A stretch of 64,000 bases of DNA from Longimicrobiales bacterium (GTDB taxonomy: Bacteria; Gemmatimonadota; Gemmatimonadetes; Longimicrobiales; Gaopeijiaceae), in NCBI GenBank assembly GCA_028278645.1, contig JANQDZ010000034.1, positions 198,261 through 262,260 of the forward strand, read 5' to 3'. The position numbers were made by a program, and so were the translations under genes. The notes under the pieces were generated by a model. That model was not told the origin of the DNA. It ran no database searches and saw nothing but the letters and a program-made list of their open reading frames with translations. This document shows, in pieces, positions 24,502-52,062 of the stretch. The stretch's first letter is position 1. Every line of letters begins with the position of its first letter.

Positions 24502-26859
24502 ATGCGAAACCTCCTGTTGCCCCTGGCCGTCTTTGTCTTCCTGGTCGCCCACCCCCCCCAAGCGGCTGAATCCCAGGAACCCTATTCCCCAGATGTTGTC
24601 ACAGCCGAGGAGTACGCACGAGCCCAAGGCTTCCTCGGATCCGCCATGAACCCGCTCGTATTCGGCACCGGAGTACGTCCGACCTGGCTCGATGACGGGA
24701 GATTCTGGTACCGGATCGCCACTCCCGAGGGCCAGGAATTTATCATGGTCGATCCCGAACGGCGGAATCGCGAGAGAGCTTTCGACCACGAACGCTTGGC
24801 CAGCGCCCTCTCCGAAGCCGCCGGAGAGAGCTTCGATCCATTCGATCTCCCGTTTTCCACCTTCACCCTGGGCGCAGACGGCCGGTCGATCATTTTCGAC
24901 TCGGGTGTCCGAACCTACACGTGTGATATCCGCAGCTATGATTGCACCCATGAGCGGCGGCAGGTAGGGAGAACGGAGGTCACCCCCCAGGACCCCAGGG
25001 GCCGGAGAGCGGCTCCAGAGGTCCTCTCCCCGGACGGCACGAACGCTGCTTTCATCCGAGATCACAATCTGTGGATGAGGGACAGGGAGTCGGGACGGGA
25101 GACACAGCTCACGACCGATGGCGTAGAGGATTTCGGGTACGGCACGAACAACGCCGGGTGGACGAAAAGCGACCGACCCGTCCTGCTCTGGTCGCCGGAT
25201 TCCAAGAAGATCGCCACCTTCCAGCATGACGGTCGAGGTGTGGGGATGATGTATCTGGTAACAACCAAGGTCGGCCACCCGGAGCTCGAAGCATGGAAGT
25301 ACCCCCTCCCTGAGGACTCGGTGATCTTCCGGATCCACCGAGTTGTGATCGAAGTGGACGGTCCCGAATCGCCCCGCGTGATCCGGCTTGACATGCCTCC
25401 GGATCAGCACAGATCCACCATCTGCGATCATATTTACTGCAACGGTACCTTCTCCGATGTCGAATGGGCACCGGACGGCTCCGAGCTGGCTTTTGTATCC
25501 TCTTCCCGGGACCACAAGGAGGCCCAACTCAGGGTCGCCGACGCAAGAACCGGGGCAGTCAGAGACGTCCTCTTCGAGCGGGAGGAGACGTACTTCGAGT
25601 CAGGGGAAGACATGGTGAACTGGCATTTCTTCCCCGAGTATGATGAGGTGGTGTGGTTCTCTGAACGAACGAACTGGGGCCACCTGTATCTGCACGATCT
25701 GGATACGGGAGAGCTGAAACACCCCATCACCTCGGGGGACTGGAGGGTTCTTCAGGTTCGCCACGTTGACCGCGCGAACCGCATGTTGTACTTCACCGGC
25801 ACGGGGAAAGAACCGGGCGATCCGTACTTCCAGTACCTCTACTCGGTGAGTATGGACGGGGGGGATGTACGTCTCCTCACCCCCGACAGCGCCAACCATG
25901 ACATCAGCTTTTCCCCCGATTTCGACTACTTCATCGATGCTTACTCCACCCCCCTCGATCCCGGGGACACCGTCCTGCGGGACATGACAGGCCGTGAAAT
26001 TGTGAGCTTGGAAACGGGGGACATCTCGCAGCTGGAAGCGGCCGGCTGGCAACCTCCGATACCCTTCTCGGTGAAGGCCCGAGACGGGACCACGGACCTC
26101 TACGGGATCATGTTCAAGCCGTCCCATCTGGATCCCAGCAAAAAATACCCGGTGGTCAACTACCTCTACCCGGGTCCCCAGTCGGGCAGCGTGGGAAGCA
26201 GGAGTTTCAGTGCGGCCCGTCGGGAGCACCAGGCCATGGCCGAGCTGGGCTTCGTCGTGGTGACCGTCGACGCCATGGGCACCCCCGGGCGTTCGAAGTC
26301 CTTCCACGACGCCTACTACGGAAACATGGGCGACAACGGCCTCCCCGATCAGATCGCCACCATCAAAGAACTGGCGTCGAGGAACCCCTGGATGGACCTG
26401 GATCGGGTAGGGATTTGGGGTGGATCAGGAGGAGGATTTGCATCCACCGCCGGGATCCTCCGGTATCCGGACTTCTACAAGGTCGCCGTCAGCACATCCG
26501 GGAACCACGACAACAGGAACTACGAGGACGACTGGGGTGAAAAGTGGCAGGGTCTCCTCGAAACCTATGCCGACGGCACGACCAACTACGACAATCAGGC
26601 AAACCAACTCGTCGCCGAGAATCTGAAAGGGAAGCTGTTCCTAGCCCACGGCTCCATGGACTCGAACGTCCCACCTTATAACACCATGGTCGTGGTTGAC
26701 GCCCTGATCGCAGCGAACAAGGACTTCGACCTGCTCCTCCTCCCGAATAGGGGCCACGGATTGGGCGAACCCTATATGGTCAGGCGAAGGTGGGACTACT
26801 TCGTCGAGCATCTCTTGGGAGCGGAGCCGCCGAAAGAATACCCCATGGGAGGAAGATAG
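24502..26859 (+). CDS. S9-family serine peptidase (DPP-IV/prolyl-oligopeptidase type) with a signal peptide
   Basis: Signal peptide MRNLLLPLAVFVFLVAHP. N-terminal beta-propeller region and C-terminal GIWGGSGGG (GxSxGG nucleophile elbow) ... HGSMDSNV ... GHGL. Confidence 0.85.
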   Translation: MRNLLLPLAVFVFLVAHPPQAAESQEPYSPDVVTAEEYARAQGFLGSAMNPLVFGTGVRPTWLDDGRFWYRIATPEGQEFIMVDPERRNRERAFDHERLASALSEAAGESFDPFDLPFSTFTLGADGRSIIFDSGVRTYTCDIRSYDCTHERRQVGRTEVTPQDPRGRRAAPEVLSPDGTNAAFIRDHNLWMRDRESGRETQLTTDGVEDFGYGTNNAGWTKSDRPVLLWSPDSKKIATFQHDGRGVGMMYLVTTKVGHPELEAWKYPLPEDSVIFRIHRVVIEVDGPESPRVIRLDMPPDQHRSTICDHIYCNGTFSDVEWAPDGSELAFVSSSRDHKEAQLRVADARTGAVRDVLFEREETYFESGEDMVNWHFFPEYDEVVWFSERTNWGHLYLHDLDTGELKHPITSGDWRVLQVRHVDRANRMLYFTGTGKEPGDPYFQYLYSVSMDGGDVRLLTPDSANHDISFSPDFDYFIDAYSTPLDPGDTVLRDMTGREIVSLETGDISQLEAAGWQPPIPFSVKARDGTTDLYGIMFKPSHLDPSKKYPVVNYLYPGPQSGSVGSRSFSAARREHQAMAELGFVVVTVDAMGTPGRSKSFHDAYYGNMGDNGLPDQIATIKELASRNPWMDLDRVGIWGGSGGGFASTAGILRYPDFYKVAVSTSGNHDNRNYEDDWGEKWQGLLETYADGTTNYDNQANQLVAENLKGKLFLAHGSMDSNVPPYNTMVVVDALIAANKDFDLLLLPNRGHGLGEPYMVRRRWDYFVEHLLGAEPPKEYPMGGR

Positions 26860-26924
26860 GGCCTCGTACCGGGGAGATCCGGCCGCCGGGGTCAGCCTAC
26901 CCCGGCCGACCGCCCGGAACGTGA

Positions 26925-26960
26925 GAAGGCCCCCCAATTCGGGGGGCCTTCTTTGTTTCA
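26925..26960 (+). terminator. Strong intrinsic terminator after the S9 peptidase gene
   Basis: An 11-bp perfect GC stem (gaaggcccccc / ggggggccttc) with a 5-nt loop is followed by tttgtttca. Confidence 0.75.
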
Positions 26961-26979
26961 CCCCAGCCGTAAATACCCG

Positions 26980-27489
26980 TCAGCCACCCACCAGCCAGCC
27001 CTTGTGCTCGATGTGGGCGGGGATGGGCTTGGCCGTGGTTTCCCTCTCCTCAATCCGCTCCGCAAGCCACTGAAACCACTCGTAGTAAGTGTCCCTGCCC
27101 CCAATCCTCCTCATCTCCTCCACATATCGCCGGAGCTTTTTCCATGAAAGGAGGATCGGCCCGCTGAAGAAGTCTTCAAGGAGATCGAGGTCGATCTCCC
27201 TCTTATAGGTCACGACTCCTAAGGCTTCCCATGTGGTCATCAGAAGGCTGATAAACCGAATGTCTTCTCCGAGGTGATGCTCGATCTGTTGTTTTGAGAG
27301 CCCGTCGGGGAGGTCGACCAGGCGGTTGAGCGCCACGGCGAACTCCAAGGTCTGGTAGGACTTCACCATCTCGAGCATGGATTCCCTGGTTCTCCGCTGT
27401 CGGTATCGTCTCAGCTCAAAGATGGCGAACCCGAAACCGATGACGACCGCCACGGCGGATACAATCTCGGCTGCTCCAACGAGATCCAT
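26980..27489 (-). CDS. Membrane-anchored hypothetical protein
   Basis: One N-terminal TM segment (AAEIVSAVAVVIGFGFAIF). Rest unclassified. Confidence 0.4.
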   Translation of the reverse strand: MDLVGAAEIVSAVAVVIGFGFAIFELRRYRQRRTRESMLEMVKSYQTLEFAVALNRLVDLPDGLSKQQIEHHLGEDIRFISLLMTTWEALGVVTYKREIDLDLLEDFFSGPILLSWKKLRRYVEEMRRIGGRDTYYEWFQWLAERIEERETTAKPIPAHIEHKGWLVGG

Positions 27490-27578
27490 CAGCGTTCTCT
27501 CTCTGTTTTCAGGGAGGAATCGGTATGGGAAAACCTACCCGCCGGCGGGCGGAAACGGTCCCTCCCGCGGGGCAGCCG

Positions 27579-27692
27579 CCTCAGCGGCGGTCTACGGCCT
27601 CAGCGGCGGTCTGCGGCCTCAGCGGCGGTCTCCGGCTCACCGGCAGTCGGCAGTTTCACCGGCGGTGGGCGGCTTCACCGGCGGTCCCAGTC
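27579..27692. repeat. Direct tandem repeat, six copies of 19 bp (cctcagcggcggtctNcgg degrading to ttcaccggcggtNNNNgg)
   Basis: Read directly from the sequence. Copies 1-3 are near-identical and 4-6 diverge. It sits 90-200 bp upstream of the minus-strand gene starting at 27489 and runs into the last codons of the DinB gene. Confidence 0.8.
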
Positions 27693-28139
27693 CCAGATGG
27701 CGTAGGCCGTGTTCTTATCCACCGCGTGGCCACTCTGTTTCAGGGTAAGGAGGATGCTGCCCCGGTGGTGGCTTTCGTGGGCCACCAAATAAGCCAGGGT
27801 TGTTATGACACCCTTCTTGAACCCTCTCCTCCCATCCAGACCCTGTGCCAACCCATCGAGAAAAGCCTCGATGGCTTCACCCGATACCATCAAGGCGTCC
27901 CGGACCGCCTTGCGATCGGGATGTTCTTTAGAGCGGAAGAACTGCAGGCCCTCAGCAAGATCCTTGGCCCTCTTCTCCAGGTGGTGAACTCGCACGTCGT
28001 GGATGTGGGCAAACTGCCGGGCCACGTCCCGGCCTCCCCTCGTCGAGAGCGTCGCCCTCATTCCCTCGTCACTGATCTGGTCCAACAGCAAGAGGCTGAT
28101 GCGGTTGTTCGTCCTCCAAGCCTCAAGAAGGTCATCCAT
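27675..28139 (-). CDS. DinB/YfiT-like (DinB_2) metal-dependent enzyme family protein
   Basis: MDDLLEAWRTNNRISLLLLDQI...HIHDVRVHHL...HESHHRG shows His-rich motifs typical of the DinB_2 four-helix bundle. Confidence 0.55.
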   Translation of the reverse strand: MDDLLEAWRTNNRISLLLLDQISDEGMRATLSTRGGRDVARQFAHIHDVRVHHLEKRAKDLAEGLQFFRSKEHPDRKAVRDALMVSGEAIEAFLDGLAQGLDGRRGFKKGVITTLAYLVAHESHHRGSILLTLKQSGHAVDKNTAYAIWDWDRR

Positions 28140-28566
28140 TCTTCCCCCCGTCTTCGAGCAACCCGTCGATCTCAGCAATCCTCTCCGCTGCTTCCGGGAA
28201 TCCCACCAGGAATGCCCCCATGGGCTTCAGGAGGGCGAACAACATCCTGGCTTTCCCCAGGGAATCCAAAGCCCTCCCGACGTCACCGGTTGCCTCCGCA
28301 TGGAGGCCATCGAGGTAGAGGGTTTCGGCTAGAAGCCAACAGCTCCCGGGTTCGATCTCCCCCGTCGGAGCGATGAGAAGGCGGACAGTCTCGGGTGTGG
28401 CGGCTCGAGCCAGATCAAGAGCCAACCCAGCTTGTTGGGAGACCTCCTGGAGTCCGTTTTCGACTTCCCCCTCTGGTGCACCTCCACCAAAGATCTTCTT
28501 CCGGATTAAAATCAGGGCAGCACCGAGCATCTCGATCTGCCTGAGAATGTAGTCTTTTTGTGGCAT
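28132..28566 (-). CDS. Hypothetical protein
   Basis: 144-aa ORF starting at MPQKDYIL. It overlaps the DinB start by 8 nt. Confidence 0.35.
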   Translation of the reverse strand: MPQKDYILRQIEMLGAALILIRKKIFGGGAPEGEVENGLQEVSQQAGLALDLARAATPETVRLLIAPTGEIEPGSCWLLAETLYLDGLHAEATGDVGRALDSLGKARMLFALLKPMGAFLVGFPEAAERIAEIDGLLEDGGKNG

Positions 28567-28568
28567 TG

Positions 28569-28844
28569 TCAGTCCGAAGGCGGTTTGGTCAGAAAGAGAA
28601 TCACCACGATGTACGAGAGCTGAAGGATCAGGCAGGCGTAGAGGATTCCCCACTCTCCCCCTGCCCGGCCAAGGGGGGTTTCGCTGGCGATCTCATCCAC
28701 CATGACCTTCGCGGCATCATGGCTACCAGCGTGCTGACGGCCAGGCTGACTGTTGGATCGTCCCGGCCTTCCATGGCCCAGCACATCCCGATGAGGTGGG
28801 GCACGGCGGACTTCGCGGATGGCTTCGCCATGTTCCTTTCCCAT
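28569..28844 (-). CDS. Possible small membrane protein (91 aa) translationally coupled to the upstream hydrolase
   Basis: ATG overlaps the beta-lactamase-like gene's TGA as ATGA at 28842-28846. C-terminal TM segment WGILYACLILQLSYIVVILFLT. The N-terminus is Arg/Gly/Pro-rich, so the call is weak. Confidence 0.3.
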   Translation of the reverse strand: MGKEHGEAIREVRRAPPHRDVLGHGRPGRSNSQPGRQHAGSHDAAKVMVDEIASETPLGRAGGEWGILYACLILQLSYIVVILFLTKPPSD

Positions 28845-29968
28845 CACCCCCGCTCCCTCAGCGGGTCCGGCGGTTGGAGTGGGTTTCGCCGATCCAAGAG
28901 ATAGAACCCGATATCGTCGATGCTTTGGGTTCCGTTGGTGAGAATCACCACAGCTCGTCCCCCCACCTTGTCCAGCCCGATGAAAGAGTGGAAACCCCCC
29001 GTCCCCCCGTTGTGCCAGGTTATTGGGCGGTCCGGGAATCGCTGGTTCACCAGCCACCCCAACCCCATGGAGAGATGCCGTGCTATCCCGGAAGCCCGGA
29101 CCTCGTGGGTTCGCTGAAGGATCGAACTGACCTGCGTGCCATCGGAAGCGAGGTTCGCGGCAGCGAAGAGGAGCATATCATCGGCCGTGGAACGGAGAGC
29201 GCCCGCTCCGGGCAGTGTCGGGAAATCCCAGAAGGGCGCCGTTTCAGCCAAGGCATTGTGCCCCTGGGCAGTAGGAGCACCCAATGGAGGTGCCAGGTCC
29301 ACCCCCGTGTTCTCCATTCCCAGGGCATCCAGGATTCGCTCCCTCACCAGCTGCTCGTAGGTCATCCCTGTCTTGACCGCCAGCGCATGCCCCAGAAGAC
29401 CCGTTCCGAGGTTGGAGTACTCCCAGGTCTCACCCGCTTCCCGCGGCAACCTAAAACCGGAGAGGAACTCGTACATCTGCTCAATCGTGTAGCCTGCGTA
29501 GGGATTTCTGAGGTCGGCCGGCCGGAAGTTCAGAGGCATTCTCGGTAGCCCGGACCGGTGGGTCGCCAGGTCCAGGAGTGTGATTTCCCTGTCACCCACC
29601 GAGGAAACCGTGACGTGGGAGGGGAGAAAAACGGCCACTGGATCGTCGAACTGAACCTCCCCCCTGGCGACCATGTCCTCCAGGACCGCCGCGGTGAATA
29701 CCTTCGTGACCGATCCTATTTCGAAGACCGTGGAGCCATCGAGGGCCACCCCCTCCCGACCCGAGACCCCCGACGTGACCACTCGAGGGCCCTCCCCGTC
29801 CAGGAGGCCAACGACGATACCGGGGTTTCGGCCCAGAGCCACCCGGTCCGCAAGGAGCCTTTCCACCTCCCAATCCGCGGGGAAGGACTGGCCGAACCCT
29901 CCCGAGGCGGAAAAGCCCAACAGCACCAACGACATCGCCAGACCCAGAGTCACCCTCGGTAGACTCAT
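28844..29968 (-). CDS. Beta-lactamase-related serine hydrolase (class C/PBP4-like)
   Basis: Signal peptide MSLPRVTLGLAMSLVLLGFSA. The SxxK motif is SVTK. Later YSN and HNGGTGG motifs are present. Confidence 0.8.
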   Translation of the reverse strand: MSLPRVTLGLAMSLVLLGFSASGGFGQSFPADWEVERLLADRVALGRNPGIVVGLLDGEGPRVVTSGVSGREGVALDGSTVFEIGSVTKVFTAAVLEDMVARGEVQFDDPVAVFLPSHVTVSSVGDREITLLDLATHRSGLPRMPLNFRPADLRNPYAGYTIEQMYEFLSGFRLPREAGETWEYSNLGTGLLGHALAVKTGMTYEQLVRERILDALGMENTGVDLAPPLGAPTAQGHNALAETAPFWDFPTLPGAGALRSTADDMLLFAAANLASDGTQVSSILQRTHEVRASGIARHLSMGLGWLVNQRFPDRPITWHNGGTGGFHSFIGLDKVGGRAVVILTNGTQSIDDIGFYLLDRRNPLQPPDPLRERG

Positions 29969-30146
29969 GATGGGGCCTGTCTCTTTTTGGCCAACATCCG
30001 TCGAAGTGTCCTGACCAGGAGGGGTAGGTCCCCTTGGACCCACTCCCGGCCCTCCAAGTGGGCGGTAACCTTGTCCAGGGCATCCAAACAAGCTCCCACT
30101 TCCTTCGGCGACCGACTAAGTGACCGTGCGTGATGGTTCGACACCC

Positions 30147-30422
30147 TCATCCTTGGTGCCCACTCGATTCCGAGCCTTCCTCAGGGTCCTGGTCGGGTGT
30201 TTTCTTCCGGCCTTCCCTCTCGGCATTCTCGGCTTCCGCCGCTTCCTTCTCCAGTTTTGCCTTGAGCTGGAGAATCTCCATCATGGCCGCGCTGTCCTTT
30301 TCCGGTGTCTCCTTCGGGAAGTAGAGGTTCCTTACCCACTTGGCCACCATGACCAGGAGACCCAAGACCAGAACGGTGACAAAGGCACCCAGAACCAGGC
30401 CGGACAGATAATTTGAACTCAC
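30147..30422 (-). CDS. Small membrane protein with a C-terminal acidic coiled-coil
   Basis: GTG start preceded by AAGGAGAG at -8. N-terminal TM segment LSGLVLGAFVTVLVLGLLVMVA followed by a KAKLEKEAAEAENAE helix. Confidence 0.5.
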   Translation of the reverse strand: MSSNYLSGLVLGAFVTVLVLGLLVMVAKWVRNLYFPKETPEKDSAAMMEILQLKAKLEKEAAEAENAEREGRKKTPDQDPEEGSESSGHQG

Positions 30423-30500
30423 GAACGCATCTCTCCTTGGAAAAAGGAAAGGCCCCGATCGGACGGCGGGAGGGTTCCGAATCCGACCTTTCCCGACCGG

Positions 30501-30719
30501 TCACAGATCCCAGAAGGATCCGTGAAGGCCAACCTGCCGGAAGATGTCCAGCGTCTCCTCTGCGGACCCACGGATCCAGTCGATCTCCTCCCGTCCGGCA
30601 TACCACAGTTTCGCCAGCTGCCAACATTGGTCCAACGGGATGACCTCCCCCGTCTCGAAATCCCGTTGATTGCACCACCGAACAGCATGTTCTTCCGCCC
30701 GGAAGAGGTGGATGCTGGC
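30501..30719 (-). other. In-frame continuation of the MerB-like reading frame past the TGA (72 codons, no possible start codon)
   Basis: Same frame as the upstream CDS. It translates to ASIHLFRAEEHAVRWCNQRDFETGEVIPLDQCWQLAKLWYAGREEIDWIRGSAEETLDIFRQVGLHGSFWDL, which has protein-like composition and contains no Met/Val/Leu start codon. See the finding for this region. Confidence 0.4.
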
Positions 30720-31181
30720 TCAGGTGAACCCGATATCCTCCCAGAAGCGTCGAGCCGGAACCAGGAAATGAACCACAGCATCCTGAGGCGAGACGTGCCC
30801 TTCTTCCACCGTGAGGATCAGCGACTCTCCACAGTCGGGGCAGAGGGTAACCGTCGTCGAGTCCTCACCCAGGAGGGCCGGGATGCCCAAAGCGTCCCAG
30901 GCACAGTTGGCCCAATACCTCGTCTCCCCCACCTGGACCGGATACGGCGTTGGGACGGCCGAAAAGGGGTGGGCCATCCAAATGGAGTGGGATCCAGGCG
31001 CCAGGACCAGAGCATGATCCCTCGCCAATCGGCCCAGCGATTCCTCAACCGTTCGGATGTCCGACCCGGCTTCCCGGGCAAGCATTGGAGTGTTTGGCGG
31101 CGAGCCCGTCTCGATGAAATGTCGATAAACGAGCCATCTCACCTGTTCATCGATGTCCTTCGTTCCCACAGGGGCCTCCAT
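30720..31181 (-). CDS. MerB-like (alkylmercury-lyase family) protein ending at an in-frame TGA
   Basis: ETRYWANCAWDALGIPALLG aligns to MerB RRLYAWCALDTLIFPALIG, with the Cys96/Asp99 equivalents conserved. CPDCGESLILTV aligns to HCAATGAPVSLTV. An in-frame TGA sits at 30720-30722. Confidence 0.6.
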   Translation of the reverse strand: MEAPVGTKDIDEQVRWLVYRHFIETGSPPNTPMLAREAGSDIRTVEESLGRLARDHALVLAPGSHSIWMAHPFSAVPTPYPVQVGETRYWANCAWDALGIPALLGEDSTTVTLCPDCGESLILTVEEGHVSPQDAVVHFLVPARRFWEDIGFT

Positions 31182-31347
31182 TGCGGATCCACGTCCAAGA
31201 CACACCGTGGAGTCGGAGAAAGCAAGCTTTCAATGCTCCTTCGCCAGATGAGGCTCGACAAACCCACATCTCCGGGAGCATGTTTAGAATACCCGAGTTG
31301 GAGGATCGGCCGGCTCGAGGCCTTCAAGCCCTGGACGTTGGAGTGGA

Positions 31348-31734
31348 ATGCGCCCCGTTGCTCTCGCCGTCGACGACGAACCCCAGGTTCTCCGGTTGGT
31401 CTCCCAATGCCTTCGTACGGAGGGTTTTGATGTCCTGAGCGCTCATTCGAGAGATGAGGCTGAACAGGCCGCGGGGCAGGTTGAGGCCGTGGACCTTCTG
31501 GTGACAGACATCTTTCTCGGAGATGGGTGGGGCGGAGAGCTCGCCTTTCGGCTTCAGGAAGAGAACCCCTCCCTTGCCGTGGTCTTTATCTCCGGGCGAG
31601 CCGGGGAGGATCCCATTCTCCGCCATGGGATCCAGGAACACATGGTGTTCTTGGAGAAGCCCTTCACCATGGTGGAGTTGGCTGACGCCGCCCGCCAAGC
31701 CATGGACGGCGTGCCAGGGTCGCCTCAAGACTGA
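31348..31734 (+). CDS. Stand-alone response-regulator receiver (CheY-like)
   Basis: VALAVDDEPQVL...DLLVTDIFLGDGWGG...FISGRAG shows the canonical DD, phospho-acceptor Asp and Lys regions. Confidence 0.7.
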   Translation: MRPVALAVDDEPQVLRLVSQCLRTEGFDVLSAHSRDEAEQAAGQVEAVDLLVTDIFLGDGWGGELAFRLQEENPSLAVVFISGRAGEDPILRHGIQEHMVFLEKPFTMVELADAARQAMDGVPGSPQD

Positions 31735-31782
31735 AAGTGGTCCCGGCTGACTCCAAAGAGACTATCCCCGAAGAGACAAAAA

Positions 31783-32310
31783 ATGAACGATCTGGACGCC
31801 CTGCGGTTTCCCATCGGCCCATTCCGCCCCCATGAGACCATGACCTCCCAGGAGAGGTCCGCCTTCATCGACGAAATCGAGGCCTTCCCCACCAACCTCC
31901 GTGAGGCGGTGTCGGATCTGTCCCGAGAGGAATTGGAAACCCCGTACAGGGAGGGAGGATGGACCGTGCGCCAGGTCGTCCATCATGTCGCCGACAGTCA
32001 TCTCCAGGGGTATGTGCGGTTCAAGCTGGCGATGACGGAGGACACTCCAACGATCCGGACCTACCAGCAGGCTCCCTGGGGGGAAACCGCCGACTCACGA
32101 ACCGGCCCGGTCGGACCTTCTCTGGATATCCTGGAGGCCCTCCATAAACGGTGGGTGTTTTTCCTGCGCACTCTTTCGGACGAGGACTTCCAGCGTACCT
32201 ACCTTCACCCGGATATGGGGGAGCTCAGCCTGGAGACCACTGTCCAGCTCTATGCGTGGCACGGGGAGCACCACCTTGCCCATGTAGGGCTGGTGTCTGG
32301 TGGAGCGTAA
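31783..32310 (+). CDS. DinB/YfiT-family putative metal-dependent hydrolase or thiol transferase
   Basis: WTVRQVVHHVADSHLQGYVRFKL...LYAWHGEHHLAHV is a YfiT-like His triad. Confidence 0.7.
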   Translation: MNDLDALRFPIGPFRPHETMTSQERSAFIDEIEAFPTNLREAVSDLSREELETPYREGGWTVRQVVHHVADSHLQGYVRFKLAMTEDTPTIRTYQQAPWGETADSRTGPVGPSLDILEALHKRWVFFLRTLSDEDFQRTYLHPDMGELSLETTVQLYAWHGEHHLAHVGLVSGGA

Positions 32311-32323
32311 TACAGCGGGGCCT

Positions 32324-32824
32324 CTAGTCCAAACCTACCGTCGAGCTTCTTCGCTCCATCAGCAGCACGTCACGCCAGGTGTCGCCCATCTTCCCCAGCC
32401 TTTTCCTGGTTCCGAGAACTCGGAATCCGCACTTCTCATGGATTCGAACGCTGCTCTGGTTTTCCGGGAAGATCCCCGCCTGGAGGGTCCAATAACCCTC
32501 CGCTTCAGAGGCCCTCACCAGCTCCCCCAGAAGGACGGTCCCGATGCCCCTACCATGTGCCCCGGTACCCACATAGACGCTCACCTCGGCAACCCCTCCG
32601 TAAACACACCGATCGGATGCGGGCCAAAGCGCGGCCCAACCCAGGATTGTTCCATCCTCCACGGCTACCACCCTGCAGGCCTGGATGTGTTTTGCATCCC
32701 AGTCGGCCCATTCGGGTGATTCGGTCTCGAACGTTGCGTGCCCGGTGGCAATACCCTCTTCATAGATCTCCCTGACTCGGGGCCAGTCCGAGGCTTCCAT
32801 GGGGCGAAGACTGATCTCGCTCAT
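32324..32824 (-). CDS. GNAT-family N-acetyltransferase (phosphinothricin-acetyltransferase-like)
   Basis: ISLRPMEASDWPRVREIYEEGIATGHATFE...GRGIGTVLLGEL...HEKCGF is a typical PAT/GNAT pattern. Confidence 0.8.
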   Translation of the reverse strand: MSEISLRPMEASDWPRVREIYEEGIATGHATFETESPEWADWDAKHIQACRVVAVEDGTILGWAALWPASDRCVYGGVAEVSVYVGTGAHGRGIGTVLLGELVRASEAEGYWTLQAGIFPENQSSVRIHEKCGFRVLGTRKRLGKMGDTWRDVLLMERRSSTVGLD

Positions 32825-33089
32825 TCCTTCCCTTTCGCGAACATCACGGTCTTTGTCAGGTGATTCCTGAAAGGCCGACCGCGGACGGGTTCCGGGTCGA
32901 AGATGAACATAGGCCCTCCCCCCGTCGTTCGAGAACCCTGACAGTCTCGTGACAACTTTTTGTCAACAAAATGCCGTCTCAAACGTATGAGAGAATGACG
33001 GCCGATGGGTCCGTTGAGGAACCCGGATGCACCTCCGGAGGAAAACAAGCCAAAAAAAGGCGCCCGACCAGCCCTTCCATGGAGGAAAG

Positions 33090-34001
33090 ATGCGAACGCT
33101 GGTGGCGCTGGTCATTCTCTTGACCTCAGGGGTAGGGAGCGGCACGACGCTGACCGGACAGGACAATCCCACCGGACCCAACCTTACCTCACCAGACACT
33201 CCGTTTTTGATTCATAACATCCGACCGGCCCAGGAAGTCACCCTCGGCGCCGGCGTGAAGGTCGGGATCCTGGATCACTCCTTTGAGGTTGCTTCCCATC
33301 CGGAACTTTATGCCGGAAGGAAGGAGTTCCGTGTCGGGGCCCGTGTGGTTGGTGAGTCGAGGGAAACCTATCGGGGGTATTGGACGGCCCTCACACTTCA
33401 TGAGGTAGCCCCGGGAGCCGAGATTTATGCCCTGGATCTCCCAGCACCCGATGGACGGAGTGACGCGGAGGCCATGGCCCGGGCCCTGGCCTGGGCCGTG
33501 GAGAACGGCCTGGACGTGGTCACCTATTGTGGCGGAGACCTCTCCCCAGAGGACCGGGAGATCCTGGATCCTGCCGTTGAAAAGGCTGTGCGGGCTGGGG
33601 TGGTGGTGGTATTCGCCGGCTACGCCCATCCCTCGAACCTCCTGCCGGGTAGCTTCGGACCCGTCCGGGCCGAGGACGGTCGGGCCCCGGACCTGAACAT
33701 CTTCAGCTATGACTGCACGGCCGTCATCGCCGACGAGATCGTGGCCTTCATGGACGTGGACGATGACGTGATCCGGAGGCGGCGACCATTCCTCTCCCGC
33801 TCCTCTGTCGCCCCCGTAGCCGCAGGTTTCGTGGCTCTGGTAAGGAGCGTGGACCCTGAGGCCACCCCCGGCGAGATCAAAAACCTGCTGATGGAGTCCA
33901 GCCGGCCGCTGGAGCACAAGGGGCGAGTGGAGCCCAGGGTACCCGACGTATTCGAGGCCATCAAAAGCGTGTCCGGGATGGGAGCTGGGAGGCCGGATTA
34001 G
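33090..34001 (+). CDS. Subtilase-like (S8-related) secreted protein, possibly degenerate
   Basis: GGAGGA precedes the ATG. Signal peptide MRTLVALVILLTSGVG. An Asp box (VKVGILDHSF) and a Ser motif (SSVAPVAAGFVAL, compare GTSMAAPHVAG) are present. The His box is atypical. Confidence 0.45.
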   Translation: MRTLVALVILLTSGVGSGTTLTGQDNPTGPNLTSPDTPFLIHNIRPAQEVTLGAGVKVGILDHSFEVASHPELYAGRKEFRVGARVVGESRETYRGYWTALTLHEVAPGAEIYALDLPAPDGRSDAEAMARALAWAVENGLDVVTYCGGDLSPEDREILDPAVEKAVRAGVVVVFAGYAHPSNLLPGSFGPVRAEDGRAPDLNIFSYDCTAVIADEIVAFMDVDDDVIRRRRPFLSRSSVAPVAAGFVALVRSVDPEATPGEIKNLLMESSRPLEHKGRVEPRVPDVFEAIKSVSGMGAGRPD

Positions 34002-34002
34002 C

Positions 34003-34371
34003 CTAGGAGCTGTCGGTGGAGGCGCCTCGATACGTAATGCCTAGATAGAGGAGGATTCCCAGGAGCATTCCCAACCCACCGGAAGCGACGCCGGTTCCGA
34101 AACCGGATTCACCCCAGACAACAGAAGCCAATCCGGCTGTCAAACCGGCTGAAACGGCAAAAGCCAGGGCCGCCGGCCCCGCCCATTGCCGTTTCAAGAT
34201 CGCCCCGACACCCGCCGAGATTCCGAACAACCCGAACGCGGCCTGCCCAATGGTGCACGCCCTTTGGCCCAGGTTTGCCGCCAGTTCCCAGTCGCTGAGA
34301 CAGCTTTGGATTCCGCTGAGGCCCAGGAACAGGAGGAACACCACCGAGACCCAAAAAACAATCCTACGCAT
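34003..34371 (-). CDS. Small polytopic membrane protein
   Basis: Start at MRRIVFWVSVVFLLFLG. Three or four hydrophobic segments. Confidence 0.4.
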   Translation of the reverse strand: MRRIVFWVSVVFLLFLGLSGIQSCLSDWELAANLGQRACTIGQAAFGLFGISAGVGAILKRQWAGPAALAFAVSAGLTAGLASVVWGESGFGTGVASGGLGMLLGILLYLGITYRGASTDSS

Positions 34372-34429
34372 AGCCGAAAAGTAGTGTGTAGATTTGATAT
34401 AGGCACTGTCGCCAAGGCTGGAGGTACCA

Positions 34430-34816
34430 GTGGCCAAGATTTTGGTAGTGGACTGGGAAGAGGACGAACGTGTCTACATGTGGTCCGTCCTGGAGGACGC
34501 CGGGCATCGACTCCTCTTCGCGGCCGATGGTAAGGCCGCATTGGAGGTTTGGAGCGAAAAGGACGTCGATCTGGTCCTGACGGAGCTCTACCTTCCCGAA
34601 ATGAACGGTCTCCGCCTGATCAAGGAGCTCAAGGCCCGGGATCCACACGGACTCGTTGTGGCAATCTCGGAGATCAGCGCGGACCAACTCGATCTGGCAG
34701 AGGATTATGGCGCTTGCCATATCCTTTACAAACCCGTGGACCCGGATACACTCCTGGCCGGAGTGACGGAAGCGCTGGAGAGTCATCGCACCATCCGGCG
34801 TCACGACTGGATGTAG
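34430..34816 (+). CDS. Atypical receiver-domain protein (pseudo-receiver: DW for DD, Glu at the phospho-acceptor position)
   Basis: KILVVDWEEDE...VDLVLTELYLPEMNG...LVVAISE. It aligns to canonical receivers, but the conserved acidic pair is D-W and the acceptor Asp is replaced by Glu. Confidence 0.55.
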   Translation: MAKILVVDWEEDERVYMWSVLEDAGHRLLFAADGKAALEVWSEKDVDLVLTELYLPEMNGLRLIKELKARDPHGLVVAISEISADQLDLAEDYGACHILYKPVDPDTLLAGVTEALESHRTIRRHDWM

Positions 34817-34820
34817 CTCC

Positions 34821-35969
34821 TTGTCAGCCGGGTTTGTCTCACCCGGGTTTCTCCATATCTTCTCTCGGAATCTTTTTCCCGGCAACCGGCATTTGGTTGG
34901 TTTCCCTCATCCGTTCGAAGTCCTGGAGGCAAAACTGGTGGTACAACCCCCTGACAGGGCCAAGGTGGCCTTTTGGAACCAGAGCCTGGCCCCTTTCGTG
35001 GGCCCGGACACACGCCGAAGTGTGACGCAGCTCCTTACCTCCGCTGTGCCTTTCTTTGCTCTTTGGACCCTTTCTTACCAAGCCCTGGCGGTGAGCTATT
35101 GGTTGACCTTGGTCCTATCGGTCCCGACGGCAGGGTTCCTGATGAGACTGTTCATGATCCAGCATGACTGCGGACATGGCTCCTTCTTCCATTCCAGGCG
35201 GGCCCGGGATACGGTCGGATTCTGGATCGGGGTCCTTACGCTGACCCCGTATGCCTATTGGAGGAAGACACACGCCTACCATCACGCCCACTCAGGGGAT
35301 CTCGACCTCAGAGGATTTGGGGATATCGACACGCTCACTGTGTCGGAGTATCTGTCCCTTCCCCGGCACCGGCGGTTTGCATATCGAGTTTACCGCCACC
35401 CACTTATCCTCTTCGGCATCGGCGCTGTACTCCATTTTGTGATCGTCCACCGGTTCCCCTGGACCACCCCACGGAACTGGACTGAAGCTTGGCGCAGTGT
35501 CTGGCTTACGAACCTGGCGCTTGTGGCTTTGGTGTCCGCCCTGGCCCTCACCATCGGACTCAAGAGCTTCATCCTCGTTCATGCCCCGGTACTTGTGGTG
35601 ACCTGTTCTCTGGGCGTTTGGCTTTTCTATGTCCAGCACCAGTTTGAGAACACCTACTGGCACCGGCACGAGAACTGGGACTACTACGACGCGGCTCTGG
35701 AGGGCAGTTCTCTCCTTCTCCTTCCCAGTCCTCTCCAATGGCTTACCGCCAATATCGGGATCCACCACGTTCACCACCTGAGTGCCCGGATCCCCAACTA
35801 CAAGCTCGAAGAAGCCATGTGGGCCGTTCCGGAGCTTCAGAACCCCACGCGGATCAGGATCGGAGATACGCTGGAGCTGGTGACCCGCACCCTTTGGGAC
35901 GAATCGGAGGAACGGCTGGTTCGGTTCAGGGATGTGAAGCGGTTGCCGCCGGGGAGAACCGCGGCGTAA
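34821..35969 (+). CDS. Membrane fatty-acid desaturase (di-iron, His-box type)
   Basis: Three His boxes are present: HDCGH, HAYHHAH and HHVHHL. The start is uncertain (TTG at 34821, or GTG near 34938). Confidence 0.8.
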   Translation: MSAGFVSPGFLHIFSRNLFPGNRHLVGFPHPFEVLEAKLVVQPPDRAKVAFWNQSLAPFVGPDTRRSVTQLLTSAVPFFALWTLSYQALAVSYWLTLVLSVPTAGFLMRLFMIQHDCGHGSFFHSRRARDTVGFWIGVLTLTPYAYWRKTHAYHHAHSGDLDLRGFGDIDTLTVSEYLSLPRHRRFAYRVYRHPLILFGIGAVLHFVIVHRFPWTTPRNWTEAWRSVWLTNLALVALVSALALTIGLKSFILVHAPVLVVTCSLGVWLFYVQHQFENTYWHRHENWDYYDAALEGSSLLLLPSPLQWLTANIGIHHVHHLSARIPNYKLEEAMWAVPELQNPTRIRIGDTLELVTRTLWDESEERLVRFRDVKRLPPGRTAA

Positions 35970-36006
35970 AAAACCGACCCGGGGGACCCGGGTCGGTTCT
36001 TGTTCG
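35970..36006. terminator. Bidirectional intrinsic terminator between the desaturase and FKBP genes
   Basis: A 12-bp stem (aaccgacccggg / cccgggtcggtt) with a gga loop. It is flanked by aaaaa on one side and cttgttc on the other. Confidence 0.75.
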
Positions 36007-36024
36007 AGCCGGCAACAGGTGAAC

Positions 36025-36453
36025 TTAGTCGATCTTCACCAACTCTATGTGGAAGGTGAGGTCTTTTCCGGCCAGAGGGTGGTTCCCGTCCATCCTTACG
36101 CTTTCGGCGTCCGAGAAGATTACAACCACGTCCATCTGTCGCCCATCCTTGGTCTCCAGCCTTAGGATCTCCCCTTCCTGCGGATCGTATCCAGGCGGCA
36201 GGTTCTCCCGGGGTGCCGTGAACACCAGTTGATCCAAACGCGGCCCATAGGCCTCGTCGGAGGGAATGGTCACGGTCTTCTTTTCTCCAACCTCCATCCC
36301 CGTGACCGCGGTGTCAAAACCCGGGACCACCTGACCCTTCCCCAGCTGGAAGGTGAGAGGGTCTCTACCGTCGGACGTATCGAAGATCGAGGCGTCATCG
36401 AGCTTCCCGGTATAGTGAACGTGTACGTGGTCACCGCTTTTTGCCTGGGGCAT
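36025..36453 (-). CDS. FKBP-type peptidyl-prolyl cis-trans isomerase (SlyD/FkpB-like)
   Basis: GDHVHVHYTGKLDDASIFDTS...LTFQLGKGQVVPGFDTAVTGMEVGEKK is a classic FKBP fold pattern. Confidence 0.85.
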   Translation of the reverse strand: MPQAKSGDHVHVHYTGKLDDASIFDTSDGRDPLTFQLGKGQVVPGFDTAVTGMEVGEKKTVTIPSDEAYGPRLDQLVFTAPRENLPPGYDPQEGEILRLETKDGRQMDVVVIFSDAESVRMDGNHPLAGKDLTFHIELVKID

Positions 36454-36478
36454 AATTCACTCTTTCTAGAAAATCACA

Positions 36479-36510
36479 GCGGGCTGGAGGAGCCTTTTCC
36501 TCCAGCCCGC
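36479..36510 (-). terminator. Intrinsic terminator downstream of the flotillin gene
   Basis: A perfect 12-bp stem (gcgggctggagg / cctccagcccgc) with an 8-nt loop. A T-rich run (gattttct) follows on the minus strand. Confidence 0.65.
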
Positions 36511-36570
36511 GATCATGTTGGCACTTCCGGTCCCCCCGAGATACACCCGGGGGTATCCTGAAGTTCTGGT

Positions 36571-37860
36571 TTATTCTCCCGACGTGACCTTCTTGGCAGC
36601 GCCTTGGAGGACATCCTGGATGTCGACACCCACTGCAGCCGAAATAGCCTCGACGGTACCCAAGGCCCCATGGACCCTCTGGTTCACGGCATTGCTCACT
36701 CCCTCGCCGCCTCCGCTGTCCAGCACCACCACCCGGTCGATGTCCACGCCTTCCACCGCGGCTACGGAGGTTTCGAGGAGCTCGGGTAGCTTCTCTGCCA
36801 GGAGGACGGCAAATGCCTCGTTCCCTCCCTGCTTAACCTGATCGTAGAGCATTCGGAGGGCTTCAGCGCTGGCTCGACCACGCTCCAAAATGGGTGCGGC
36901 ATCACCTTCTGCCCTGACCTTCGCCGCGGCCCTCTCGGCGTTCGCCGGCTCAACCACGTCGGCCTGGAGGCGGAGTTTCTCCCTCTCGACTCTTCTGCTT
37001 TCCAAAGCTTTCTGGGCCTCGACCTCCGATTCCTGGGCTTTCACAAGGGCGGTACGCTCGACGATCTGGGCCTCCCGGTCCAGCTCGGCTTTCCGCACCC
37101 GCAATTCGTTTTGCGCCTCGGCGATGGAGATGTCCGCCTCTGCTTCTTTGACCTCCGCGACCTGCCGCGCGGTGGCCTGTCTCTGCCGAGTTTCCGCAGC
37201 GGCATCGGCCTCGGCGATCTCAGCGTCCCGGACCGCTTCAGCCGCTTTTTTTCGCCCGATGGCCTCGAGGTAACCCCGCTCGTCGCTCACGTTCTGGATC
37301 TTCAACACGTCCAGGTGGAAGCCAAGAGCAGCCAGGTCTTCACCAGCATCCTCGGCCAGAGCCGCGGCAAACCCGAGCCGATCCTCATTGACCGCCTCAG
37401 GCGTGAGGGTGGCCAGCACGCCCCGGAGGTTCCCCATGAGGGTGTCCTTGGCCATGGCCACGATCTCATCCTCCGTCTTCCCAAGGATCCGCTCCACCGC
37501 GTTGTTGAAAACCGTCTCCGGCTCCGAGGCGATTTTCACGTTTGCGATGGCTTCGATGTTCAAGGGGATGTTCCCTTTTGAGAAGGCGTTCGTAACGGAG
37601 ATCTCGATGGGGAACGTTTCGAGGGACGTGTATTGGACGGTCTCGATGATGGGAACCCTGAGGGTACGCCCACCTATGACCGACCTGTAGCCAACCTGTT
37701 CTCCACTGGGGAGTTTTCGATTACGGCCCGTCAGGACCGCCGCCATGTTCGGGGGCACAATGACGATGAGAGACTTGATGGTGAGTACAGCCACCACCAC
37801 AACAACAAGGAGGGTGAAGCCAAGCGCTACAGCGCCAGCCACCAGATCATCGGTTGGCAT
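36571..37860 (-). CDS. Flotillin / SPFH (band-7) domain protein, YqiK/FloT-like
   Basis: N-terminal TM segment, an SPFH domain, then a long Ala/Glu-rich coiled-coil (EAEADISIAEAQNELRVRKAELDREAQ...). 429 aa. Confidence 0.85.
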   Translation of the reverse strand: MPTDDLVAGAVALGFTLLVVVVVAVLTIKSLIVIVPPNMAAVLTGRNRKLPSGEQVGYRSVIGGRTLRVPIIETVQYTSLETFPIEISVTNAFSKGNIPLNIEAIANVKIASEPETVFNNAVERILGKTEDEIVAMAKDTLMGNLRGVLATLTPEAVNEDRLGFAAALAEDAGEDLAALGFHLDVLKIQNVSDERGYLEAIGRKKAAEAVRDAEIAEADAAAETRQRQATARQVAEVKEAEADISIAEAQNELRVRKAELDREAQIVERTALVKAQESEVEAQKALESRRVEREKLRLQADVVEPANAERAAAKVRAEGDAAPILERGRASAEALRMLYDQVKQGGNEAFAVLLAEKLPELLETSVAAVEGVDIDRVVVLDSGGGEGVSNAVNQRVHGALGTVEAISAAVGVDIQDVLQGAAKKVTSGE

Positions 37861-39267: not shown

Positions 39268-40479
39268 TCAGCTGCGGCCCGGCCCGTAATGTTTCGGTGC
39301 ATACTCGGCCATGATTCCCATGGGAGGCCGTCCGGCCCTCAACGCGTCGGCCATATAGTTCATCGCACCGGATGTGTGGTTGAAGAACGCCTTATAACCC
39401 TCGCAGAGCCAGTTCAATCCCTTCTCCCCCTCAGGCGTCTCGAGGATCCGATTCTTGGGGCACCCTCCGTTGCACAGAAACTTCACGTCACAAGACCGGC
39501 AGTATCCGGGAAGTGATTCCTTCTTTGCCACCCCGAACGCCTGCTGGGCCTCTGAAGTCACGAGAACAGGGAGAGGTTCTCGCCTGACATTCCCCACGAA
39601 ATGGTTGGGCTCGACGTAGTGGTCGCAAGCATAGAGGTCCCCATTGTGCTCCAAAGCGAGGGCCCTGCCGCAGGTCTCGTCAAAGATGCATAATCCCATC
39701 GGGCGACCTACCCAGCCGGCCAGCGTCACATCGAAGAGCTGCACGAAGACCCTTCCCACGTCGTTACAAACCCATTCGTCGAAGATCGCATTCAGGAACC
39801 GTCCGTACCCAGAGCCGGTGACGGACCGTTCGGTCACCTGAGTCCCCTCCTGGTATCCGGTCCGGTTGTCCCTTTGAACGATGGGAATAAACTGAATGAA
39901 CGACGTCTCTACCTCGTCACGGAAAAACCGGTACACGGGTAACGGGTGCTCGACGTTCGCAGCGTGAACCGTAGCCAGAATGTTGTATTCGACGCGGTGA
40001 TCCTTCAGGAGATCCAGACCTTTCATCACAGCAGCGTGGCTAGGCTTTCCCCCTTTATCCACCCGGTAGACATCGTGGAGGTCGGCCGGCCCATCCAAGC
40101 TGATCCCCACCAGGAAAGCATTCTCACGGAAGAAATGGCACCACTCCTCGGTGATGAAGGTCCCATTCGTTTGCAGGGTGTTGGAGATTCGTGTCCCAGG
40201 CCGGGCGTAGGCTTGCTGGAACTCCACGGCTTTTTGGAAAAAGTCCAACCCCATCAGAAGGGGCTCCCCACCCTGCCATGAGAAGACCACCTCCGGTACC
40301 TGCTGGGCGCGTATGTAATCCCTGGTGAAGTTCTTCAGGATCTCCTCCGACATCCGGAAGGCGGATCCCGGATAGAGGTCCTCCTTGGACAAGTAGTAGC
40401 AGTACGAGCAGTCCAGGTTGCAGATCGGGCCCCTTGGCTTGATCATGACGTGAAAAGGTGGGACCGGGGAAAGGCTCAT
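39268..40479 (-). CDS. Anaerobic sulfatase-maturating enzyme (radical SAM/SPASM, anSME/AslB-like)
   Basis: CNLDCSYC radical-SAM motif. FSWQGGEPLL, LQTNGTFI and LVGISLDGP follow. C-terminal SPASM cysteines are present (CRSCDVKFLCNGGCPKNR). Confidence 0.85.
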   Translation of the reverse strand: MSLSPVPPFHVMIKPRGPICNLDCSYCYYLSKEDLYPGSAFRMSEEILKNFTRDYIRAQQVPEVVFSWQGGEPLLMGLDFFQKAVEFQQAYARPGTRISNTLQTNGTFITEEWCHFFRENAFLVGISLDGPADLHDVYRVDKGGKPSHAAVMKGLDLLKDHRVEYNILATVHAANVEHPLPVYRFFRDEVETSFIQFIPIVQRDNRTGYQEGTQVTERSVTGSGYGRFLNAIFDEWVCNDVGRVFVQLFDVTLAGWVGRPMGLCIFDETCGRALALEHNGDLYACDHYVEPNHFVGNVRREPLPVLVTSEAQQAFGVAKKESLPGYCRSCDVKFLCNGGCPKNRILETPEGEKGLNWLCEGYKAFFNHTSGAMNYMADALRAGRPPMGIMAEYAPKHYGPGRS

Positions 40480-50559: not shown

Positions 50560-51714
50560 TCACCGGTCCCCCCCTTTCTTCCCTTTCACCCACCGCTTCG
50601 CGTCCAGTACCACCAACTCAATAGTCCGCATCGGGCAGAAGAAGTTGCACCACGGCGTTTGTATGAGGAGAGAGACAGTGAGGACTATGAAAAGCAGGAA
50701 CCACTGAACGGTGGATCCATGCAAGGCAAACAAGGCGGCAAACGGTTCGTAACTCGCCAGCGCTGGTTGCAAGGTCAGGAAAGCCAGGAAAAGGGCCACG
50801 AAGACTACCAGATTTCGAGTCCCCTCCATAAAACGCACTGCCCAAAGGGGGACTTTCAGCTTGAACCCACCGATGGCACCGATCAACCGCTGAGCGGCCC
50901 CGAAAGGGCACGCATAAAGGCAGTAGAGGTTCCGGCCGAAAAAGATCGATGTCAGCAGGAACCCTGCGATGAGGAGATAGATTGCCAACGCGGTCCTAGG
51001 ATCGGGGAGGAAGCCGGAGAGAATCCCTGCGAGCTTCGCCATGGTGATGGGGGAGTTTTCCCAAAAGCCCAACACCAGCAATCCGACGATCTGCCCTGCC
51101 CAGCGCAAACGCCTCCGGATGGGACCCCTGAGGCGATGGCCGATGATGCCGATGGAAAACAGGGCCAGGATCGAAAGCTCGAGAATGCCGAACTCGAGGG
51201 GGCGGGGGGGAAGGGGTAAGCGGACATCGAACGCCACACCGGCAACCTCGGCTACCGAGACCCTCAAGCTTTCGACGATGGCATCGGCCGAGAGAGTGGC
51301 GCCTGTGACAGCCACGACGCTCTCATAGTCGTAGTCGATAGCATTGTACTGGGCACCGGTGATCTCCCGAATGTAATCCGGAGAGCGGACCATCCTCCAG
51401 AAAACCGGAGTCTCCCTCTGTTCCACCACCTGGACCCCGGCCACCAAGCCCAAGGTGTCGATCCCCACCACCAGGAGCATCGGCCCACCGTACCCATCGG
51501 CAGTTCCCACACCCGCCCAACCGATCAGAGTCCCGCCGGACCCCCATACGTGGTGCACACCCTGTCGGACCTCAATGCGCTGGGACTCCGGGAAAATGGT
51601 GCGGATGGGTGTAACGAAGTCCGGGGCGTTGTGGGTCCACCCGTACGCCAGAGCTCCGGCCAGAATCACCGAGGCCACGAAGAACCGGAGGAACCGGCCG
51701 CTAGGTCTGTTCAA
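50560..51714 (-). CDS. RdhC/NosR/NapH-like membrane protein (FMN-bind domain plus ferredoxin-type Cys motifs)
   Basis: The FMN-bind hallmark is VVAVTGATLSADAI. TM segments follow, then CLYACPFGAAQ and CNFFCPMR motifs. Confidence 0.65.
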   Translation of the reverse strand: MNRPSGRFLRFFVASVILAGALAYGWTHNAPDFVTPIRTIFPESQRIEVRQGVHHVWGSGGTLIGWAGVGTADGYGGPMLLVVGIDTLGLVAGVQVVEQRETPVFWRMVRSPDYIREITGAQYNAIDYDYESVVAVTGATLSADAIVESLRVSVAEVAGVAFDVRLPLPPRPLEFGILELSILALFSIGIIGHRLRGPIRRRLRWAGQIVGLLVLGFWENSPITMAKLAGILSGFLPDPRTALAIYLLIAGFLLTSIFFGRNLYCLYACPFGAAQRLIGAIGGFKLKVPLWAVRFMEGTRNLVVFVALFLAFLTLQPALASYEPFAALFALHGSTVQWFLLFIVLTVSLLIQTPWCNFFCPMRTIELVVLDAKRWVKGKKGGDR

Positions 51715-51738
51715 GGCACGAGTCCCGCGGTCGGACGG

Positions 51739-52059: not shown

Positions 52060-52062
52060 TTT

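Follow-up and report, generated by a model that had tools for sequence, protein, structure and literature searches.

A MerB-like gene on the minus strand of a 64,000-nucleotide stretch of DNA from a Longimicrobiales bacterium (Gemmatimonadota; contig JANQDZ010000034.1, positions 198,261 to 262,260; "the window" denotes this whole 64-kb stretch) is interrupted by an in-frame TGA codon. Comparative analysis indicated, with a probability that we put at roughly 0.88, that the gene encodes a genuine selenoprotein from the MerB (alkylmercury lyase, PF03243) superfamily, in which UGA would be read as selenocysteine (Sec) at the catalytic site. The original prediction, made from the letters of the window, had proposed Sec in a MerB-like protein with a downstream hairpin of the selenocysteine insertion sequence (SECIS) type, and was supported by TGA in 81 of 81 loci, a conserved extension beyond it, constraint on the hairpin and homologues with cysteine at the site. 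The protein would not be the first MerB relative with Sec; it is a member of a distinct, widespread and apparently undescribed family that includes a predicted double-Sec subclade.

Translation of the minus strand from 31205 to 30420 gave a sequence that reached ...FWEDIGFT at the TGA (30722-30720) and resumed in the same frame with ASIHLFRAEEHAVRWCNQ...GSFWDL, in agreement with the proposal that a MerB-family open reading frame (ORF) is interrupted at 30720-30722 and then stays open for 72 codons. GTG 31169 is the likelier start of the gene because GGAGG lies 5 nt upstream, a public gene call (P0001) uses it and the closest relative has an aligned GTG start; the GGAGG would presumably act as a Shine-Dalgarno sequence. 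Residues are numbered from ATG 31181, which places the Sec at U154 (U150 from GTG 31169). The features of the gene are as follows.

30501..31169, minus strand: full-length candidate selenoprotein coding sequence, with GTG start, 149 codons, UGA (Sec), 72 codons and UGA stop; 222 aa
ATG 31181 (226 aa) and GTG 31205, minus strand: alternative starts of the MerB-like gene
31175..31179, minus strand: Shine-Dalgarno-like GGAGG, 5 nt upstream of GTG 31169, found by inspection of the sequence
30720..30722, minus strand: in-frame UGA predicted to be read as Sec (U154), aligned with Cys159 of MerB (1s6l) and the corresponding Cys of MerB2 (5c17)
30504..30719, minus strand: 72-codon C-terminal extension (ASIHLFRAEEHAVRWC...FWDL), which by homology forms the final third of the MerB fold
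30501..30503, minus strand: true stop codon UGA by translation, where the family C-terminus ...FWxL ends
30633..30635, minus strand: in-frame TTG within the extension, from which gene callers start a spurious 44-aa orphan ORF (30501..30635)

An open frame around a TGA is not significant alone. The window is 61% GC, and a scan of it for TGA-interrupted open frames was too noisy by itself and returned 37 TGA sites flanked on each side by 40 or more open, high-GC3 codons. The combination of a TGA, an open frame and a G-loop hairpin at the right distance was found only at this site and at an antisense chance match at 7970. The significance of the interrupted frame therefore derives from the comparative data and not from the window alone.

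The TGA was conserved in all of the species-level genomes whose loci were fetched. Among the 2247 homologues detected in a protein search, the best 120 were inspected for length, and nearly all had 147-155 aa and covered about 65% of the query; 31 of 31 aligned truncated homologues ended at the identical residue (...GFT). A genome scan with one genome per species detected a relative in 366 genomes, and the best 80 were fetched. Together with an identical re-assembly of the window they comprised 81 loci. The 80 genomes span about ten phyla: Gemmatimonadota (27), Acidobacteriota (21), Chloroflexota (10), Desulfobacterota or "delta" (10), Marinimicrobia (3), Planctomycetota (3), Actinomycetota (3), Myxococcota (1), Bacteroidales (1) and SAR324 (1). 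The match to the query reached residue 224-226 in all 80 relatives, and the codon aligned to residue 154 was TGA in 81 of 81 loci (80 of 80 species genomes). The closest relative, a separate metagenome contig with 87% identity, has TGA there as well. The residue preceding the TGA was Thr in 80 of the 81 sequences and Ala in the remaining one.

These data bear on the explanation that the gene is a nonsense-mutated pseudogene, or that a sequencing or assembly error turned TGC or TGG into TGA. TGA is one substitution away from both codons, TGG is present at the site in one homologous contig (L088), and the window probably comes from a metagenome-assembled genome. The same TGA nonetheless recurs in 80 of 80 genomes of other species and in the closest relative, and the frame downstream of it is unbroken and constrained as coding sequence in every one of them. 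A second assembly, the Logan assembly of SRR20820740, was 100% identical to window positions 26323-37459 (11,137 bp), TGA included. We consider a pseudogene or an error scarcely credible. Both, together with the possibility that orthologues end at the TGA, were rejected on the TGA in 80 genomes, the conservation of the extension and the Logan assembly.

The extension was conserved and free of in-frame stops in 81 of 81 sequences, compared with 0-8 stops in the other two frames, so that orthologues do not end at the TGA codon. Its consensus is ATILLFRSEEHVxRWC…WY..RL…GLTGxFWxL, and third codon positions were the most variable. A search of 1.84 billion cluster representatives with the 72-aa extension as query returned mostly orphan fragments of about 45 to 90 residues among the best 150 matches. 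Such fragments, and the habit of gene callers to annotate a 149-aa ORF plus an orphan ORF of 44-70 aa, would be expected if the UGA were a real stop that yields a 149-aa truncated MerB-like protein, with the downstream region a separate small protein or conserved for some other reason. The original prediction had held that the extension contains no ATG, GTG or TTG; this was incorrect, as there is an in-frame TTG at 30635-30633 that gene callers use as a start and that could be taken to favor a separate gene. Conservation begins, however, at the first codon after the TGA, 28 codons ahead of the TTG, and the MerB domain and fold are continuous across the TGA. Homologues with Cys at the site are single uninterrupted proteins. 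In the truncated product the position of Cys159, a residue essential to MerB, would be missing as well. A true stop at 30720-30722 is highly unlikely on this evidence.

Decoding of the UGA as Sec would restore a complete MerB active site. The read-through protein, scanned with Cys placed at the TGA, matched Pfam MerB (PF03243) with 108 bits against a cut-off of 27 bits. The match covered aa 73-194 and profile positions 1-125 of 126, and it crossed the TGA to extend about 40 residues beyond it. In a HMMER alignment with solved structures the TGA fell on Cys159 of MerB (sf-C159-C-h-v-h-f-f) and, in MerB2, on the corresponding Cys; U-ASIHLFRAEEHAVRW was paired with MerB C159-CHVHFFASVPTAEDW. This differs from the original prediction, in which ASIHLFRAEEHAV had been lined up with MerB LAIVSVHEAFGLG and an Asp was said to take the place of C159; the C159 position is occupied by the TGA codon itself. 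The suggested link between Sec and catalysis was retained in a different form, as the Sec would not be near C159 but would stand in place of Cys159. The other claim about the active site, that the CAWD motif keeps the equivalents of Cys96 and Asp99, was upheld by the HMMER alignment of CAWD to MerB C96 and D99. The two codons are listed below.

30903..30905, minus strand: TGT, Cys93, equivalent of the catalytic Cys96 of MerB by HMMER alignment (anCawD vs awCalD); nearly invariant in the family
30894..30896, minus strand: GAC, Asp96, equivalent of the MerB proton donor Asp99 by HMMER alignment; D invariant in alignment A1

By homology, Cys93-Asp96-Sec154 of the predicted protein would be equivalent to Cys96-Asp99-Cys159 of MerB, and the 222-226 aa product would have the complete MerB fold. 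The AlphaFold model of a Cys homologue that is 41% identical to the window protein (P0025; pLDDT 73.5) had MerB2 (5c17) and MerB (3f0o) as its best PDB matches (E = 1.6e-10 to 1e-8).

Other residues and domains of the family were also recorded. A CxxC motif (CPDCG; Cys114 at 30840-30842 and Cys117 at 30831-30833, minus strand) is invariant across the family and has no counterpart in canonical MerB. It may be structural or form a second metal site; the Pfam zinc-finger signal for this region was faint (E = 0.07). His138 is near-invariant, and Cys171 (RWC, in the extension) is frequent but not invariant. An RNase HI domain (PF00075/PF13456) is fused N-terminally to the MerB-like domain in P0075, P0101, P0109 and P0113, all of which end at the same TGA, and a LuxR/GerE helix-turn-helix domain is fused C-terminally in the Cys form P0025.

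The anticipated homologues with Cys at the TGA codon were found. Ten distant, full-length homologues (about 220-238 aa; e.g., P0139, P0158 and P0176) have Cys at the site, in motifs such as YTCKT, YTCAT, HTCGT, TTCAS and FACGT, and the codon was TGC in the three whose DNA was read. The hairpin region of these three is coded CGC-GAC, AGG-AGC and CGC-ACC, and the GGUC loop found there in the TGA-containing relatives is lost. Judged from these alignments, TGA fixed in near relatives together with TGC in distant ones is the classic Sec/Cys pair, here at the predicted catalytic residue.

The proposed SECIS-type hairpin lies directly downstream of the UGA, with the following features.

30691..30706, minus strand: conserved core of the SECIS-like hairpin, UCUUCC / GGGC loop / GGAAGA, with the loop starting 19 nt after the UGA
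30683..30717, minus strand: extended hairpin including the lower stem CAGCAU/AUGCUG, present in the minimum free energy (MFE) structure; the lower stem is largely specific to the window sequence

Folding of the window sequence gave an MFE of -15.9 kcal/mol (z = -2.14), and 4 of 200 shuffled sequences folded as well; taken as a single sequence, the hairpin is modest evidence. The fold reproduced the 6-bp upper stem (UCUUCC/GGAAGA), the GGGC loop, the 13 nt between UGA and upper stem and the 6-bp lower stem that had been predicted, with the corrections that the lower stem begins 2 nt rather than 5 nt after the UGA and that the internal loop is 5/2 rather than 5/3. The TGA and the following 60 nt were aligned without gaps in the 81 sequences, and a hairpin was found at a fixed position in all of them, with a stem of 4-9 bp and an apical loop beginning 19 nt after the UGA. 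The loop was GGUC in 53 of the 81 sequences, and the family consensus is CUCUUCC-GGUC-GGAAGAG. In the upper helix 83.8% of cells were paired, and both sides had changed at five of the seven pairs. The lower stem is not a feature of the family, as only 39% of its cells were paired.

Codon-usage and synonymous-resampling tests were run because the hairpin overlies the conserved peptide LFRSEE. Codon choice at the hairpin was strongly skewed: Arg was encoded by xGG in 70 of 73 cases (background 37%) and never by CGC (background 36%), Ser by TCG in 72 of 74 (background 32%), Phe by TTC in 80 of 81 (background 66%) and Glu by GAA in 48 of 68 (background 35%). Real sequences also folded more stably than controls in which synonymous codons had been resampled (MFE of -11.6 vs. 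-9.1 kcal/mol; Wilcoxon p = 1e-10). The stem-loop is conserved beyond the coding requirement, and its apical loop contains G and lies within about 16-37 nt of the UGA.

The likely course of decoding can be outlined from these features. A ribosome would start at GTG 31169 or ATG 31181 and reach the UGA at 30722-30720, where the hairpin would act as a bacterial SECIS that recruits SelB·GTP·Sec-tRNA(Sec). Sec would then be inserted, and translation would continue for 72 codons to the UGA at 30503-30501.

Several observations weigh against decoding of the UGA as Sec in a MerB-type enzyme. The first concerns the Sec machinery. No selA, selB, selD or tRNA-Sec was detected within the 64-kb window: ARAGORN found no tRNA in it, and Pfam found no SelA, SelB or SelD among its 20 ORFs of suitable size. 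A tblastn search of the window and the 80 loci with E. coli SelA, SelB and SelD returned only one selD, and no tRNA-Sec was present in the 60 locus flanks that were scanned. The selD homologue (L026:117-1043), with 45% identity to E. coli SelD, belongs to an Acidobacteriota genome, where it is situated some 9 kb upstream of the MerB-like gene; no other gene of the Sec pathway was seen in the 1.2 Mb of flanks. A literature search on Sec use in Gemmatimonadota found nothing.

The second set concerns the hairpin. Part of its conservation overlaps the conserved peptide LFRSEE, a coding confound. The loop in the window is GGGC and not the GGUC of the family; relative to the closest relative this is a T->G change that also replaces Ser by Ala and removes the U, and one other member (L042) shares GGGC. 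SelB of E. coli and Moorella contacts the G-U dinucleotide of the loop. RNAalifold detected no consensus structure in the 81-sequence alignment because the stems of two subclades are offset by one nucleotide, and explicit pair counting, codon-usage and synonymous-resampling tests were used in its place. Rfam at gathering thresholds had no match in the whole window, and a permissive Rfam scan of 30400-31300 gave only chance matches, including SECIS_3 on the wrong strand (E = 9).

The remaining points concern the site and the assignment to MerB. One homologue, L088:255-950 (JGI 3300064045, a 1067-bp contig; protein P0205), has TGG (Trp) at the Sec position. It keeps a perfect 7-bp hairpin, CUCUUCC-GGUC-GGAGGAG, and the TGG is either a very recent TGA->TGG change or a read error. 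The window protein failed the NCBIfam equivalog cut-offs for MerB, with 59.7 bits vs. 193 (NF033555/PRK13239 set) and 50.5 vs. 200. The active-site loop of the P0025 AlphaFold model is of low confidence. Finally, the absence of a mer operon around the gene weakens the organomercurial assignment.

Some of these points would also fit read-through of the UGA without the Sec pathway, by near-cognate insertion of Trp or Cys or by an alternative genetic code, with a hairpin that merely stimulates read-through. The lack of visible Sec machinery in the 64-kb window of this genome, the window loop without the U of GGUC, and the W at the site in database entries P0014, P0020 and P0076 can all be read in this way. 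Carriers of the TGA span about ten phyla, however, and both in the window and in many relatives the gene itself ends with UGA, a fact that cannot be reconciled with a code in which UGA is generally a sense codon. Read-through of this kind would be expected to let the codon drift to TGC or TGG, yet it was TGA in all 81 loci while distant homologues use TGC. The GGUC tetraloop at 19 nt presumably matches the SECIS of the E. coli fdhF type. Public entries with W at the Sec site are P0014, P0020 (91 member sequences), P0076 and P0201; P0014 and P0020 also have W at the Cys96 site, and both run past the true UGA stop. Genomic loci that share the extension of P0020 (e.g., L056) have TGA at both sites, which identifies the W residues in P0020, as far as these loci show, as an artefact of translating TGA as a sense codon. 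Read-through outside the Sec pathway is very unlikely in our estimate, and insertion of Sec is the preferred explanation.

A second TGA was detected in part of the family. In 15 of the 80 relatives the codon equivalent to Cys96 (aligned to window positions 30903-30905) is also TGA, within the motif N-U-[AIV]-W-D. These relatives belong to Desulfobacterota, SAR324, Anaerolineae and one Bacteroidales bin, and the double-TGA loci are as follows.

L024, L031, L032, L037, L038, L044, L048, L053
L056, L058, L069, L077, L078, L079, L080

The UGA at the Cys96 site is followed in these relatives by a second, longer hairpin, and the hairpin at the C159 site has loops of 5 nt (AGUUC or AGGUC) and a register that is offset by one nucleotide. 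The codons and their hairpins predict a Sec/Sec metal site in this subclade.

The expectation that a selenoprotein relative of MerB would be new was only partly correct. SaoL is a MerB-like organometallic lyase selenoprotein (NCBIfam NF040728) with Sec at the MerB Cys159 position (Haft & Gwadz, bioRxiv 10.1101/2022.07.06.499078), and two reviews, one dated 2026, list it as the only MerB-like selenoprotein (PMC9312934, PMC13188914). The window protein resembles SaoL in its PF03243 domain, in a UGA-encoded Sec predicted at the Cys159 position and in the retained equivalents of Cys96 and Asp99. The family is nonetheless distinct in score, motif and locus. The window protein scored 39.4 bits against the 140-bit cut-off of NF040728, over residues 10-131 only, and its motif is T-U-A where SaoL has C-U. 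SaoL marks a nine-gene SAO locus (an ABC transporter, an efflux pump and others), whereas the window gene is solitary. The taxa differ as well: SaoL occurs in strict anaerobes such as Clostridia and spirochaetes, whereas the window family is found mainly in Gemmatimonadota, Acidobacteriota, Chloroflexota and marine groups. The subclade with predicted Sec also at the Cys96 position is a further difference. The identification of the window protein as SaoL was rejected on the hidden Markov model score, the T-U motif and the lack of an SAO locus. A literature search for the window family found no description of it, only SaoL, and NCBI entries of family members are truncated proteins named "organomercurial lyase" or "hypothetical protein".

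Canonical MerB and MerB2 (EC 4.99.1.2; PDB 1S6L, 3F0P and 5C17; NF033555, PRK13239) share with the window protein the domain, the fold and, by alignment, a Cys-x-x-Asp motif plus a third chalcogen ligand at position 159. The window protein differs in having a predicted Sec for Cys159 and no Cys160, in an identity of about 20%, in scores far below the equivalog cut-offs given above, in the invariant CxxC of its family and in the absence of mer genes near it.

The hairpin is comparable to a SECIS of the E. coli fdhF type, as both are located within the coding sequence directly 3' of the UGA, with a loop at 19 nt that starts with G. The family consensus tetraloop GGUC is, we assume, the same as that of the E. 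coli fdhF SECIS. Differences are the GGGC loop of the window, the 5-nt loops and shifted register of the double-Sec subclade and the absence of a match to an Rfam model.

The MerB-like gene stands alone, without a mer operon or an SAO locus. Its neighbors in the window encode a response regulator, DinB, GNAT, a small membrane protein and a beta-lactamase-family hydrolase; merR, merT, merP and merA were not found near it in the window, and neither was an SAO locus. Clustering of neighbors across the 80 loci revealed no conserved neighbor. The only mercury-operon-like neighbor seen was a gene for a MerR-family regulator (PF13411; L085:2843-3262) about 1.8 kb from the Cys form P0139, and no such gene was seen near Sec forms.

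By analogy to MerB, the most likely mechanism would be protonolysis of a carbon-metal bond, with Cys and Sec as ligands and Asp as proton donor. The Cys thiolate and Sec selenolate would bind the metal of an organometallic substrate and the Asp would protonate the leaving carbon, with methyl- or aryl-mercury as the default guess for the substrate. Sec, with its lower pKa and as a softer ligand, would aid substrate capture at trace concentrations. The broader proposal that these proteins form a large, undescribed family of stand-alone selenoenzymes that cleave carbon-metal bonds (for example, in methylmercury demethylation) at a Cys/Sec or Sec/Sec site is tentative, and we regard it as possible but doubtful.

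If the UGA is decoded as Sec, thousands of database entries of the family are artefacts, namely 150-aa proteins named "organomercurial lyase" or "hypothetical protein" and orphan ORFs of about 45 to 90 residues. Surveys that use merB as a marker of methylmercury degradation would count catalytically incomplete fragments or miss the family, which occurs in no fewer than 366 species-level genomes from about ten phyla common in soils, sediments and the ocean. Should the function also be as proposed, the family would represent an unrecognized selenium-dependent route, independent of mer operons, in the environmental cycle of mercury or another organometal, and one invisible to current merB surveys because annotation truncates every member. 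Sec as a ligand in a MerB-type metal site, known from the anaerobe-restricted SAO system, would be extended to abundant phyla in habitats presumably beyond those of anaerobes, and a direct mechanistic link between selenium availability and detoxification of organometals such as mercury becomes testable. The family also provides a natural SECIS data set, with at least 81 sequences and Cys forms as controls, in which a putative SECIS hairpin constrains the overlying peptide LFRSEE.

Two other groups of genes in the window were noted. A radical SAM/SPASM protein (39268-40479, minus strand) divergently adjoins a sulfatase (40592-42088, plus strand); an anaerobic sulfatase-maturating enzyme next to its sulfatase is the usual arrangement, ordinary and unrelated to the MerB-like gene. 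An Fe-S gene cluster at 50560-55101 (minus strand) encodes a protein with FMN_bind and Fer4_5 domains and two 4Fe-4S dicluster proteins of about 500 aa.

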